Positions 29,965 to 33,730 of a DNA stretch of 50,311 nt are shown piece after piece; position 1 is the stretch's first letter; each line of letters opens with the position of its first letter. This DNA is from Deltaproteobacteria bacterium. Its GTDB lineage: Bacteria > Myxococcota_A > UBA9042 > DTJE01. The DNA lies in the NCBI GenBank assembly GCA_037442805.1, contig JBBIPO010000006.1, forward strand, positions 1 to 50,311. Reading direction: 5' to 3'. Both the position numbers and the translations under genes were made by a program. A model generated the notes under the pieces. The model made no database searches. It was not told where the DNA came from and was given only the letters and a program-made list of their open reading frames with translations.

Positions 29965-31104
29965 GTGAGCGATAGCAGAAAGACCCGATGGGGCCTGTGG
30001 GTCCGAGGGATGTTCGCGGTCGGACTGGTCGTGGTCACGCGTCCCCTCCTCGCCGACATCAGCGGGTTCCAGTTCAATGGAATCGACCCGGTCGGCGGCG
30101 TGGACTTGAACGACCGCATCGGAAAGACGTCAGCATCGAGCGACCACCGGATCAACATCGAGGACTGCAAGGCGTACACAGGCAGTTCCATCGAGATCAT
30201 GTGGTCGCTGACCCGCGTCCCCACGTCCGGGACGAAGTACGCGGTGAAGATGAGCAAGCCGGGGGGCTCGTGCTCCACGTCGAGCCTGAGCGACCTCGGT
30301 GGATCATGCTACGAAGAATTTCTGGTGTCCGAAAAAACGCTCGAGACTTATACCAACGTGAAGTTTTCCGTGCCTCTGGACCCGTTGATGGGCGGGGATT
30401 GCAACGCGGGCACGGACAAGGTCACGAACATCTATATCATGCTGGACGAAGCGGGGATCGTCAGTTCGCAGACCATCGCGTTTCGCGTGGACCTCCAGCC
30501 CCCGAAGGCCCCGACCATGGACGAGCCGAAGGAGGGGGACCAGAACGTCCTCGTCACGTGGACGGACTCAGCCAACGCGGACGAGACGGGCCTCCGGTAC
30601 CGGGTCTACTGGAGCGCGAGCCCCTTCGATGACTCGAACCGCTCCGAGGCCAGCCGGTCGGACGCGGTCACCGGAAAATCCTACCGGGTGTCAGGGCTCG
30701 ACAACGGCGTCGAGTACTGGTTCGGCGTCGTCGCCGTGGACGAGAACGACAACGAGAGCCCACTGTCCGCGGTGACGAGCGCGATGCCGGTGCCGTCGTA
30801 CGACTTGTTCGAATATTACAAGGAGGCAGGAGGCCGCGAATCCGGGGGGTTCTGCTTCATCGCCACCGCGGCGTACGGGAGCCCGATGGCCCGGGACGTC
30901 GTGACCCTTCGCCAGTTCCGGGACCGGGTCCTGATGCGTTCCTGGGTCGGCCGGTCGTTCGTGACGCTTTACTACGCGCTGAGTCCGGCGCTGGCGCGAG
31001 CGATCGAGGGGCGCGACGACCTAAAGGCCGCGACCCGGGGCCTCCTGTGGCCCCTGGTGCAGGCGGCGCGCCTGTTTGTTCCAGAGGGCGGGGACGCGCG
31101 ATGA
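29965..31104 (+). CDS. Secreted surface protein: N-terminal unknown domain, a fibronectin type III domain, and a C-terminal [10 protein letters not shown]-type (CFI-box-like) module
   Basis: GTG at 29965 has GGAGG 9 nt upstream and is in frame with the longer track ORF starting at 29809. Signal-like segment is [22 protein letters not shown]. The FN3 pattern is ..[58 protein letters not shown]... The C-terminus is [43 protein letters not shown]... Confidence 0.75.
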   Translation: [379 protein letters not shown]

Positions 31105-31823
31105 CGGAGGCGGCTGTGAAACCATCTCTCGCGTTTTCCGGGTTCGTGGTCGCCCTGCTCGTCGCCGGTCGGACGTGGGCCGAATCGCCGCGGGACATGG
31201 TCCTCGAAATCAAGTTCGGTCCGTTCCGTCCCTCCATTGATTCGGAGTTTAGGGGCCAGGCCAGCCCGTACAAGGACGTCATGGGGGGCGGGAGCGTCCT
31301 GATGACGCAGGTCGAGTACGAGTACGAGTTCTACAATCGCGTCGGGGTGGTCGCGGTCGGGGCATCGCTCGGGTACGCGCGGGACAAGGGAAAGGCGCGA
31401 CTCGCGGACGGGCAGGCGTCCAACGATTCGACGACGTTCCACCTGGTCCCGCTGTCCTTGTCGGCGGTCTATCGCTTCGATTATCTGGCGCAGGCTTTCC
31501 GCATTCCGTTCGTGCCTCACGTCAAGGCCGGGTTCGATTACTACCTCTGGTGGATCACCAACGCGGTGGGGAGCGTGGCCCGGGCCAGGGACGGGTCCGT
31601 GGGGCAGGGCGGGACCTTCGGGGGACACGTCACGTTCGGCCTCGCGTTCCACATGGACTTCCTGTCCCCGGACATGGCCCAGACCTTCGACGCCGACGTC
31701 GGCGTCAACAACACCTATCTGTTCGCGGAATACGTCCTGTCCTGGGTCAACGACTTCGGGTCTTCCCACAGTCTTGACCTGTCCTCGCGCACCTTCCTGT
31801 TCGGGATCGCCTTCGAGTTTTGA
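31101..31823 (+). CDS. Outer-membrane beta-barrel protein, translationally coupled to the FN3/CFI-box protein. From memory it resembles the MXAN_2562-type OMP family of Myxococcota.
   Basis: ATG at 31101 overlaps the upstream stop as ATGA. Signal peptide is MTEAAVKPSLAFSGFVVALLVAGRTWA. Alternating beta-strand pattern, and a C-terminal ..FLFGIAFEF with terminal Phe. Confidence 0.7.
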   Translation: MTEAAVKPSLAFSGFVVALLVAGRTWAESPRDMVLEIKFGPFRPSIDSEFRGQASPYKDVMGGGSVLMTQVEYEYEFYNRVGVVAVGASLGYARDKGKARLADGQASNDSTTFHLVPLSLSAVYRFDYLAQAFRIPFVPHVKAGFDYYLWWITNAVGSVARARDGSVGQGGTFGGHVTFGLAFHMDFLSPDMAQTFDADVGVNNTYLFAEYVLSWVNDFGSSHSLDLSSRTFLFGIAFEF

Positions 31824-32585
31824 ATGGGCGCGCGGAGGCCAGGGGACAGCGGAGTCGCCGTGGTCATCCCGGCCTACGAGGCCGACGGCAGGCTCTCGCG
31901 CACCCTGTCCCGCGTCCCGGAGTGGGTCACGGTCCGCATCGTGGTGGACGACGGGTCCGCGACCCCGGTCCGCCTGCCGCCCGCTTTGCCCCCCGTAGTC
32001 GTGGTCCGCCACGACCGGAACCTCGGGGTCGGGGCCGCGATCCTGACCGGCTATCGGGAGGCGCGGCGGCTCGGGGCCCGGGTCGCGGCGGTCATGGCGG
32101 CGGACGGGCAGATGGACCCGGACGACCTCGCCAACGTGGTCGCCCCGGTCCTGGAGGGCCGCGCCGACTACGTGACCGGGGACCGTCTGTCCCATCCCGA
32201 CTGCCCGCGGGTCATGCCGCTCGTTCGCCGGCTCGGCAACCTCGGGTTGACCTTTCTGACCCGGCTCGTGACCGGGCGCTGGGACCTGATGGACTCCCAG
32301 TGCGGGTATTCGGCCCTCGACCTCGGCCTTCTGGAGCGCCTTCCTCTCGACTGGGTCTATCCTCGGTACGGGTTTCCGAACGACCTGCTCGCCGCGGTCG
32401 TCGGGGCCGGGGGACGGGTCGCGCAGGTCACGGTCCGCCCGATCTATGCCGGCGAACCGTCGCGCATCCGGCCGGTCGTGGCCCTCTGGGTCTATCCGTT
32501 GGTGATCGCGAGGGGCCTCGCGGTGCGGGCCGTCGCGTGGGCGCGGGCGAGGAGGTCGGGGCCAGGGGAGCCATGCGCGTCCTGA
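31824..32585 (+). CDS. Family 2 glycosyltransferase (dolichyl/polyprenyl-phosphate sugar synthase-like)
   Basis: ATG follows immediately after the OMP stop (TGAATG). GT2 motifs: ..VAVVIPAYEA.., ..VVDDGSAT.., ..AADGQMDPDD... Confidence 0.8.
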   Translation: MGARRPGDSGVAVVIPAYEADGRLSRTLSRVPEWVTVRIVVDDGSATPVRLPPALPPVVVVRHDRNLGVGAAILTGYREARRLGARVAAVMAADGQMDPDDLANVVAPVLEGRADYVTGDRLSHPDCPRVMPLVRRLGNLGLTFLTRLVTGRWDLMDSQCGYSALDLGLLERLPLDWVYPRYGFPNDLLAAVVGAGGRVAQVTVRPIYAGEPSRIRPVVALWVYPLVIARGLAVRAVAWARARRSGPGEPCAS

Positions 32586-33730
32586 TGCTCACGAGTTCGT
32601 ATCCGTGTCGCGAGGGGGACTGGCGCGGGGGGTTCGTGCGCGACCTGGGCCGGGCCCTGGCACGCGAGGGACTGCGCGTGACGGTCGCGGCCCCGAGGCC
32701 CCCGGGTCTGTTCCGCCCGCCCGTCGTCCGGGAGGGGGACCCCGTGACCCTGTGGCTGCCGTCGTGGTTGCCCACGCGCGCCCGGGGGTTCCACGGCGTG
32801 GGGCTCGCGGCGAACCTCCGGCGCGACCCGGTCGCATGGGTGAATCTCGCGCCGTTCCTGGGGGCCTATGCCCTGGAGGCCCGCGTTCACGCGGCCCTCG
32901 CGGACGTGGTGGTGGCGCACTGGCTCCTGCCGATGGGGCTGGTCGGGGCCGTGGTTTCGCGATGGGCCGGGCGTCCGTTCGGGGTCGTGGCGCACTCCGG
33001 GCCACCGTGGCCAGTCCCCTCGTGGCTCGTGCGGTCCGTGGTGACCCGCGCCGCGTCGGTCGCGTGCGTGTCGGAGTCGGTGCGCGGCGAGGTCGAGGCG
33101 CGGGGGGGAGTGGGGGGGCGCGTCGAGGTCCTGCCCCTGGGCATTGATCTGCGGGCGAGCGCGGAACCGCGCCCACTGGATGGTCGTCCCTTGCGGCTCC
33201 TGTTCGTGGGCCGGCTGGTGCCCGGGAAGGGCGCGGACCTGCTGGTGCGCGCAGCCGCTCGGATGGCCGGGGGCCCGCCCATTCGTTGGACCGTGGTCGG
33301 GGACGGCCCGGAACGGGCGCGCTTGGAGGGCGCTGCTGGCCCGGGCGTGCGGTTCCTGGGCGAGTGCGACTCCGAGCGGGCGAGAGCCGAGATGGCGCTG
33401 CACGACGCGCTCGTGATCCCTTCCAGGACGGGGTGGTCCGGGCGGGCGGAGGGCCTGCCGAGGGTCCTGTTCGAGGCGTGGGCGTGCGGTCTGCCGGTCC
33501 TGGCCGCGGACACGGGGGGGCTCGGGGAGTCGGTCCGGCGGCACGGCGGTGGTGTCCTGTTTCCGCCAGAGGACGTGGAGGGTCTGGTGCGCGCGGTCGA
33601 GGCGTTCCGTGGCGACGCGGCGTTGCGGTCCAGATTGCGTCGCGGGGCCCTGGATGCCGCCTCGCGTCATGCCTGGGAGCGCCTGGGTCCGCGCTGGGCC
33701 CGGTGGGTCCGCGGGCTCGCGGCCGCATGA
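32573..33730 (+). CDS. Family 4 (GT-B, RfaG-like) glycosyltransferase
   Basis: ATG at 32573 overlaps the GT2 stop by 13 nt. N-terminus MRVLMLTSSYP...GGF. C-terminal motifs are ..LLFVGRLVPGKGADLL.. and ..PSR...EGLPRVLFEAWACGLPVLAADTGGLGE.. (E-x7-E-type). Confidence 0.85.
   Translation: MRVLMLTSSYPCREGDWRGGFVRDLGRALAREGLRVTVAAPRPPGLFRPPVVREGDPVTLWLPSWLPTRARGFHGVGLAANLRRDPVAWVNLAPFLGAYALEARVHAALADVVVAHWLLPMGLVGAVVSRWAGRPFGVVAHSGPPWPVPSWLVRSVVTRAASVACVSESVRGEVEARGGVGGRVEVLPLGIDLRASAEPRPLDGRPLRLLFVGRLVPGKGADLLVRAAARMAGGPPIRWTVVGDGPERARLEGAAGPGVRFLGECDSERARAEMALHDALVIPSRTGWSGRAEGLPRVLFEAWACGLPVLAADTGGLGESVRRHGGGVLFPPEDVEGLVRAVEAFRGDAALRSRLRRGALDAASRHAWERLGPRWARWVRGLAAA

Follow-up and report, generated by a model that had tools for sequence, protein, structure and literature searches.

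The genes at positions 29965-33730 of a 50,311-nt stretch of contig JBBIPO010000006.1 (Deltaproteobacteria bacterium, assembly GCA_037442805.1; the whole stretch, with a G+C content of ~70%, is called the window below) probably form an operon, dependent on sigma-54, that encodes a two-partner adhesin module of the cell envelope, of the SgmI/MXAN_2562 type, in which a CFI-box stands in for the MYXO-CTERM sorting tag. A probability of about 0.62 is given to this reading. The sequence was read as four co-directional genes on the + strand, A to D, preceded by asd:

29965-31104, + strand: gene A, GTG start with GGAGG 10 nt upstream, 379 aa, SgmI (MXAN_2561)-like exported protein
31101-31823, + strand: gene B, 240 aa, outer-membrane beta-barrel of the MXAN_2562 family, C-terminus ...FGIAFEF
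31824-32585, + strand: gene C, 253-aa GT2 glycosyltransferase with a hydrophobic C-terminal helix
32573-33730, + strand: gene D, 385-aa GT4 glycosyltransferase
28768-29781, + strand: asd (aspartate-semialdehyde dehydrogenase), directly 5' of gene A; a syntenic marker, not a functional part of the module

Genes A and B share an ATGA overlap (31101-31104), B and C meet at TGAATG (31821-31826), and C and D overlap by 13 nt (32573-32585); the four-gene content and all three junctions had been described in the first-pass annotation of this DNA and check out against the sequence. The operon is taken to end with gene D because the gene that follows, from 33782, is convergent. Gene order and junction types are identical in the independent assemblies L081, L082 and L083, and a protein identical to the 379-aa product of gene A is present in the protein database (P0129), so the observation is real and not an assembly artefact. 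Labels of the form L001 denote loci compared and those of the form P0xxx database proteins, as numbered in the analysis.

Adhesin, barrel and exchange of the C-terminal tag

The product of gene A is divided into four parts:

29965-30054, + strand: predicted signal peptide, aa 1-30, with a basic n-region and a hydrophobic core, conserved in the alignment; putative cleavage between ...RPLLA and DISG
30067-30492, + strand: N-terminal immunoglobulin (Ig)/FN3-like beta-sandwich, aa 35-176, with invariant C68, C103, C115 and C146; predicted local distance difference test (pLDDT) >90 in the AlphaFold2 (AF2) model
30511-30783, + strand: FN3 domain, aa 183-273, Pfam PF00041 (E 1.4e-6), on which AF2 and Foldseek agree
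30853-31059, + strand: CFI-box-CTERM domain, aa 297-365, beginning at invariant Cys297

Pfam recognizes only fn3 in this protein (aa 189-269). Among the NCBIfam models, CFI_box_CTERM (NF041770) matches over its full length (94.5 bits against a cutoff of 40; aa 297-365, model positions 1-69 of 69), which bears out the CFI-box-type C-terminus assigned earlier. The domain opens with the invariant Cys-Phe-Ile at aa 297 and shows the family's invariant motifs C-F-I-A-T-A-A...FRD...YY..SP, and the protein stops 14 aa past it. The equivalog model MXAN_2561_fam (NF045522) scores 88 bits, below its cutoff of 150, and aligns only as far as aa 298 (model position 280 of 304), which is where the MYXO-CTERM of that family would start.

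The AF2 model of A (m708862ae459c, from a 45-sequence alignment) has a mean pLDDT of 87. It contains a signal-peptide helix (aa 6-23), a short helix (aa 281-287), a floppy Gly-rich linker that includes Cys297, and a CFI-box modelled as a small bundle (aa 299-371) of one short helix and three longer ones (299-304, 310-321, 327-347 and 351-371; pLDDT 75-89). The four cysteines of the N-terminal domain occupy invariant alignment columns, and the domain is homologous to the N-terminal domain of the Myxococcaceae orthologues. Foldseek searches of the AF2 models of A and of a fused homologue (see below) against PDB returned only tandem-FN3 proteins, for A such modules as neogenin FN5-6 and L1CAM FN2-3, and no match for the CFI-box or the barrel. 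Protein A is probably exported by Sec and presumably exposed at the surface, and it may be processed or lipidated at Cys297.

Gene B belongs to MXAN_2562_fam (NF040596; 236 bits against a cutoff of 100) and has no Pfam match. Its signal peptide spans aa 1-27 (...GRTWA followed by ESPRD) and its C-terminus is aromatic (...AFEF); the dedicated outer-membrane barrel with a C-terminal Phe proposed in the first-pass annotation is thereby confirmed as a member of this family. Homologues of B form 146 clusters, all of Myxococcota type, and PDB sequences searched with a barrel profile gave no significant match. Eight strands are seen in the AF2 model of the barrel half of a fused homologue, P0140, which was folded in place of the window's B. 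Protein B is probably the outer-membrane partner or anchor of A.

The barrel profile was scanned against one genome per species, which gave 152 loci, and the best 80 of these were examined. Wherever upstream sequence was readable in these 80, the gene 5' of the barrel encodes an FN3 protein. The adhesin partner carries a CFI-box in 25 of the 80 loci and a MYXO-CTERM-type end in ~41; the remaining 14 were not assignable. Partners with a CFI-box come from metagenome-assembled genomes of uncultured Myxococcota, 'Deltaproteobacteria' and Bradymonadales, and the MYXO-CTERM-type end (GGC, then a transmembrane (TM) helix, then RRK) is found in taxa that include Myxococcus, Corallococcus, Pyxidicoccus, Archangium and Anaeromyxobacteraceae. 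MXAN_2561_fam scores 305-329 bits on the Myxococcaceae partners of the barrel and 70-104 bits on the CFI-type partners, where the match ends at the start of the CFI-box. Alignment of CFI-type with MYXO-type adhesins by hhalign gives a probability of 99.8% (E 1.7e-27; window aa 56-295) and spans both beta-sandwich domains and the linker F/W-x-x-Y-x-x-A-G-G-x-E-x-G-G, stopping just before the Cys. Conservation of this Cys, and of the AGGxExGG before it, is strict in both tag types. No further CFI-box or MYXO-CTERM-like tails were found in the window or in the CFI-type loci.

In nearly all 80 loci asd lies directly 5' of the adhesin gene, from Myxococcus and Corallococcus to the uncultured lineages (L002-L083), and the recurrent block across the 80 species-level genomes consists of asd, a sigma-54-like promoter, adhesin and barrel. 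The stability of the asd-sgmI-like synteny across the phylum is itself unusual. Shared synteny and hhalign homology together show that the window pair and MXAN_2561/2562 are positional orthologues whose tags, MYXO-CTERM and CFI-box, have been exchanged at one invariant Cys. The likeness to MXAN_2561/2562 with a different tag had been pointed out in the first-pass annotation and proves correct, given the asd-adhesin-barrel order, the hhalign probability and the score of B above the MXAN_2562_fam cutoff. The barrel is thus a conserved partner of SgmI-like adhesins and not a partner of the CFI-box.

Almost every CFI-type orthologue continues beyond the CFI-box with a hydrophobic helix and an Arg-rich (RRRR) tail, both of which are lost in the window's clade (the window, L081-L083 and P0130-P0137). 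Adhesin and barrel are also joined in frame in ~27 protein clusters of 600-660 aa and in two of the loci compared:

L111:3959-5878 and L086:610-3207: fusion loci
P0138-P0140, P0148 and P0195-P0223: fusion proteins

The order in these fusions is signal peptide, Ig-like and FN3 domains, CFI-box, TM helix, basic (RRR) loop, a second hydrophobic helix that ends in a signal-peptidase site, AxA|ES(P), and a barrel ending in Phe; the basic tail of the adhesin doubles as the n-region of the barrel's signal peptide. The fusion P0140 matches the NCBIfam models MXAN_2561_fam, CFI_box_CTERM and MXAN_2562_fam together. The L086 fusion has a low G+C content (0.41), a divergent passenger, a long low-complexity spacer and a distant barrel (E 3e-09 against the barrel profile). 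By the 'Rosetta stone' argument adhesin and barrel are therefore functionally coupled, and the position of the CFI-box directly before the TM helix, in fusions and relatives alike, puts it on the periplasmic side of the inner membrane.

Promoter, glycosyltransferases and surrounding genes

The regulatory features of the locus are as follows:

29898-29913, + strand: sigma-54-type promoter, TGGCACGATCATTGCT, with -24 TGGCAC and -12 TTGCT; predicted transcription start ~40 nt before the GTG of gene A
24374-26176, + strand: candidate cognate sigma-54 activator (bacterial enhancer-binding protein, bEBP), FHA-GAF-AAA+-HTH_8 by Pfam, 3.7 kb upstream

The element TGGCACGATCATTGCT is the sole exact match to TGGCAC-N5-TTGCW in the 50 kb, and one match alone would not beat chance. 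A sigma-54-like element of the form TGG[CT][AC][CT]-N5-TTGC[AT] lies directly 5' of the adhesin gene in 47 of the 65 loci with a usable upstream region, as TGGCAC in CFI-type loci and as TGGCCC or TGGCCT in Myxococcaceae, and it occurs elsewhere in the loci at 0.01 per kb per strand, so that the enrichment is >100-fold. The element of gene A is conserved in L081-L083. The predicted sigma-54 promoter of the adhesin gene is well supported by this conservation, and the sigma-54-driven label of the first-pass annotation stands, with GG at -24 and GC at -12 in canonical spacing.

The operon may be activated by the nearby bEBP, to which it is linked by position. As a conserved neighbour of the adhesin the bEBP gene was rejected, since it is syntenic only in close relatives and not in more distant loci. 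A second sigma-54-like site, TGGTACGGCCCTTGCA (26285-26300, + strand), lies directly 3' of the bEBP gene and 5' of a small lipoprotein-like open reading frame (ORF) and a lipoprotein with CarboxypepD_reg repeats (to 28694); it is also present at L081:4924, L082:4385 and L083:846. The two sites, this one and that at 29898, point to a small local sigma-54 regulon.

Gene C matches PF00535 (Glycos_transf_2, E 2.7e-15); its best NCBIfam match, PpgS, misses the equivalog level (57.8 bits against a cutoff of 370), and its nearest solved structure is the dolichol-P-mannose synthase 5mlz (E 8e-6). Gene D matches PF13439 (Glyco_transf_4, 58.7 bits) and PF00534 (Glycos_transf_1, 92.5 bits) above the gathering score. 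Its NCBIfam matches are all sub-threshold, with no specific equivalog, and the nearest solved structures are PimB' (3oka, E 4e-14) and PimA (2gej, E 2e-10), which are lipid-acceptor mannosyltransferases. Weak similarity suggests that C is of the polyprenyl-phosphate sugar synthase (DPM1/PpgS-like) type, and it is a reasonable guess that the two enzymes produce a glycolipid or a sugar carried on a lipid, or else modify an envelope component by glycosylation. An N-glycosylation sequon in A, D-S-N-R-S (aa 224-228), was considered as their target and dropped, as it is not conserved in the other loci with these glycosyltransferases and no oligosaccharyltransferase is present.

The two glycosyltransferase genes are found 3' of the barrel in the window's clade alone: in 9 of the 80 loci (L001-L008 and L016) and in L081-L083, with barrel identities of 53-94%; they are missing from most CFI-type loci. 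Another group, mostly CFI-type (L014:9384-10721; L009, L015, L017, L018, L020, L022, L025 and L028), has an ArsA/ParA-like ATPase ~0.8 kb 3' of the barrel on the same strand, and Myxococcus-type loci have a PKD-domain protein there (L064:3352-5238). The glycosyltransferases are thus a clade-specific, translationally coupled add-on. A reading held to be possible but less likely than not is that they are hitch-hikers in the operon, serving general lipopolysaccharide or exopolysaccharide synthesis with no functional tie to A and B. It would account for their absence 3' of the barrel in most loci, where an ArsA-like ATPase or PKD protein is found instead, for the GT2 and GT4 matches, which are to generic families only, and for an operon that contains no GT-C enzyme or flippase. 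Set against it are the TGAATG junction and the 13-nt overlap, which imply translational coupling, and the order A-B-GT2-GT4, kept across the clade while the barrel diverged to 53% identity, which points to selection on linkage.

A Pfam scan that covered most of the likely genes of the window found no gene for a CPBP protease, a type II secretion system (T2SS), a GT-C enzyme or a flippase. The hairpin at 31056-31072, which resembles a terminator, was discarded as being within chance expectation. An HD-GYP-type gene (35659-36768) is flanked by genes for two large, Cys-rich proteins that look secreted and match no Pfam family (33782-35800, - strand, and 36858-39254, + strand); the first of them is convergent with the GT4 gene and is kept in L081-L083. 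The window opens with a giant ORF (3-11111, + strand) that is truncated by the contig start, encodes at least 3702 aa and contains 49 copies of a MopE-type putative Cu-binding motif (PF11617, 1382 bits). A transglutaminase-elicitor domain (PF16683) and a proprotein-convertase P-domain (PF01483) are combined in one protein at 43316-45175 (- strand), the gene of which has a first-codon-position G+C noticeably below that of neighbouring genes.

CFI-box family and competing explanations

A metagenome scan with C[FY]IATAA[YF]G gave at least 600 matches, and the 80 loci most similar to the window's CFI-box were analysed; these contain 87 CFI-box ORFs and span G+C contents of 0.31-0.75, and their ranking by likeness to the window's CFI-box should raise the chance of meeting the barrel. 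The pattern scan and an exhaustive HMMER search replaced a word-indexed homologue search with the 91-aa CFI-box, which returned only 8 matches and was uninformative. With an 89-aa domain as query, the number of clusters at 50% identity came to at least 21,261 in the HMMER search (E <=1e-3), and in nearly all of them the CFI-box lies at or near the C-terminus, in host proteins of every size. Passengers include Calx-beta, cohesin, DUF11, GDSL lipase and beta-propeller domains, and 47 of the 87 sampled ORFs have a hydrophobic segment and an Arg tail after the CFI-box. Clustering of all ORFs around the 80 CFI-box loci revealed no recurrent neighbour, be it a sortase, a CPBP protease or a barrel, and the other clusters were antisense artefacts.

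Some database proteins depart from the usual arrangement. P0284 (1453 aa) has 9 CFI-like stretches; P0249 has its best-scoring copy internally (aa 884-958 of 2009) together with a second matched stretch; and in P0240 and P0246, proteins with a prepilin N-methylation domain, the query match (~20% coverage) looks like a C-terminal CFI-box. Hedgehog- or intein-like autoprocessing between G and CF was entertained as a speculation and abandoned, as the position before the Cys may be F, G, A or L, and the domain, with its 70-aa helical bundle, does not have a Hint fold.

In the mechanism favoured here, A would be exported by Sec and present its two Ig/FN3-like domains, with B as its dedicated eight-stranded outer-membrane barrel, serving as partner or anchor in the way TraB does for TraA. 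In the window's lineage the MYXO-CTERM (Cys motif, TM helix and Arg tail) has been replaced at the invariant Cys by CFI-box-CTERM. The CFI-box sits at the periplasmic face of the inner membrane, ahead of a TM helix and Arg tail in most relatives, with helix and tail lost in the window's clade. It would act next to the membrane as a C-terminal module, based on the Cys, for anchoring or sorting, and not as a docking element for the barrel. The GT2 and GT4 enzymes would probably supply a lipid-linked sugar, a glycolipid or a glycosylated envelope component used with the adhesin.

Several observations weigh against this mechanism. Every known tripartite sorting signal requires a TM helix and a basic tail, and protein A has neither, so that an intramembrane-protease route like that of MrtX is not obviously available to it; 34 of the 87 sampled CFI-box proteins likewise end right after the domain with no TM helix, and no known signal of that kind matches the TM-less state shared by A and a third of CFI-box proteins. 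P0125 is a small Zn-ribbon CFI-box protein that has no signal peptide and looks cytoplasmic. The bEBP gene is syntenic only in L081-L083, the glycosyltransferase functions rest on weak similarity, and the AF2 model of the fusion (predicted TM-score, pTM, 0.56) neither confirms nor excludes an A-B interface. Surface exposure of SgmI and its binding to MXAN_2562 are themselves presumptions in the literature, and a literature search found no experiment on any CFI-box protein and no paper that mentions the CFI-box.

The first-pass annotation had proposed that the CFI-box of A docks to a private barrel B and forms, with GT2 and GT4, a self-contained system for export, anchoring and possibly glycosylation. 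The four genes are indeed tightly coupled, the block is conserved in L001-L008, L016 and L081-L083 down to the 53% barrel identity given above, and the A-B fusions put CFI-box and barrel in one polypeptide. The proposal nevertheless fails the neighbourhood test: the barrel is paired no less regularly with orthologues that carry MYXO-CTERM and lack a CFI-box (~41 of 80 loci), and it is present in just 4 of the 80 sampled CFI-box loci, or 2 of the 61 with at least 900 nt of downstream sequence. In three of these four (L084, L107 and L111) the passenger matches the SgmI-like profile, and in the fourth, L086, it is by eye a remote relative and the barrel is the distant one (E 3e-09). Further evidence against docking is that the CFI-box family, with its wide range of G+C, is >100 times larger than the barrel family and that the CFI-box lies at the inner, not the outer, membrane in fusions and TM-bearing relatives. 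The share of GT2 and GT4 in such a system fares no better, since they are absent from most CFI-type loci and unrelated genes stand downstream outside the window's clade. Docking is accordingly regarded as very improbable.

In the main rival reading the CFI-box, whether or not a TM helix follows it, serves as a permanent anchor in the inner membrane or periplasm, and A binds the periplasmic face of B as a trans-envelope tether and is not a surface protein. It draws on the TM helix and RRRR tail that follow the CFI-box in nearly all CFI-type relatives, on the two-helix inner-membrane hairpin that the A part of the fusions would keep after signal-peptidase cleavage, on the lack of any sortase-like gene linked to CFI-box genes, and on the modelled CFI-box, which looks like a folded helical domain and not a short motif. 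A passive anchor would hardly explain why the Cys and the AGGxExGG context are strictly conserved in both tag types; the orthologues carry MYXO-CTERM at the same Cys, and in TraA that tag is cleaved by MrtX, with surface delivery (PMC11980579). The window's A, moreover, has no TM helix at all, and an ectodomain of ~260 residues is short for spanning the periplasm. A tether of this kind is thus considered unlikely. A broader proposal, also rather doubtful at present, is that the CFI-box is a widespread Cys-dependent sorting or lipid-anchoring signal, interchangeable with MYXO-CTERM and processed at the Cys, with or without a TM helix, by a broadly distributed enzyme encoded elsewhere than next to it. 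By extension, the DPM-synthase-like GT2 and the PimA/B-like GT4 would build a glycolipid for anchoring. The resemblance of C-F-I-A to a CaaX box is a lead in this direction, MrtX being a member of the CaaX-protease (CPBP) family.

If the CFI-box is such a signal, the SgmI/MXAN_2562 family, with its swaps, TM-less variants and fusions, offers a ready-made test system. The tag swap next to the same barrel and the same promoter amounts to a natural experiment, by which the function of the CFI-box becomes a testable hypothesis; it gives a handle on a very abundant domain, for which SgmI and TraA of M. xanthus provide a tractable model. The survey also shows the phylum-wide conservation of the sigma-54-type promoter of the sgmI operon, and it shows that adhesin-tag-barrel fusions, noted once before (MXAN_5598), recur. 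For practical annotation, the window encodes an SgmI-like adhesin, an MXAN_2562-family barrel and two accessory glycosyltransferases.

Relation to known systems

In M. xanthus, SgmI (MXAN_2561) is an FN3-type protein with a C-terminal sorting tag that is implicated in motility dependent on type IV pili, and sgmI is apparently co-transcribed with MXAN_2562, with which it shares a similar fitness profile in transposon sequencing (bioRxiv 10.64898/2026.08.28.747804). The window pair agrees with this pair (NF045522 and NF040596) in the asd-adhesin-barrel position, the sigma-54-like promoter, the two Ig/FN3-like domains, the linker ...YxxAGGxExGG-Cys and the dedicated barrel family. It differs in carrying a CFI-box instead of MYXO-CTERM, in having no TM helix or Arg tail, in the added GT2 and GT4 genes, and in its score of 88 bits against the 150-bit cutoff.

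The TraA and TraB reading frames of M. xanthus overlap, and MXAN_5598 is a fusion of an adhesin, an internal MYXO-CTERM and a barrel (Guo, Haft and Wall, PMC11980579). These systems share with the window a Cys-tagged adhesin gene that overlaps or is fused with an outer-membrane barrel gene, a likeness of functional analogy (PMC11980579), and the natural fusions found here mirror MXAN_5598. TraA, however, has a PA14 domain and Cys-rich repeats, TraB and the C-terminal barrel of MXAN_5598 have an OmpA domain, and the tag is MYXO-CTERM.

The MYXO-CTERM Cys of TraA is needed for cleavage by the myxosortase MrtX (CPBP) and for sorting to the surface by T2SS, and its lipidation is presumed (PMC11980579). 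Both tags begin with an invariant Cys after a Gly-rich linker, at the identical position in orthologues, and most CFI-type relatives retain a subsequent TM helix and Arg-rich tail, as in MYXO-CTERM. The CFI-box differs in the ~65-aa helical domain between Cys and TM helix, in a TM helix that is optional (absent from 34 of 87), in a distribution far beyond Myxococcota, and in having no processing enzyme linked to it. As a CFI-box-CTERM (NF041770) the window domain is a full and typical match, and its context of SgmI-like passenger and barrel is that of 4 of the 80 sampled loci. Genes C and D share folds and nucleotide-sugar motifs with DPM1/PpgS/GtrB and PimA/PimB, although the similarity is weak and all equivalog cutoffs are missed widely.

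The first-pass annotation had suggested that the combination may be undescribed. This stands insofar as the literature search drew a blank on the CFI-box, and it does not stand for the parts, each of which already has a curated NCBIfam model. As the adhesin-barrel pairing is also known from Myxococcus, the locus is not a new kind of system; new are the swap of MYXO-CTERM and CFI-box between orthologues, the sub-variant with no TM helix, the recurrence of the fusions, a sigma-54-like promoter conserved across the phylum and the appended glycosyltransferases.

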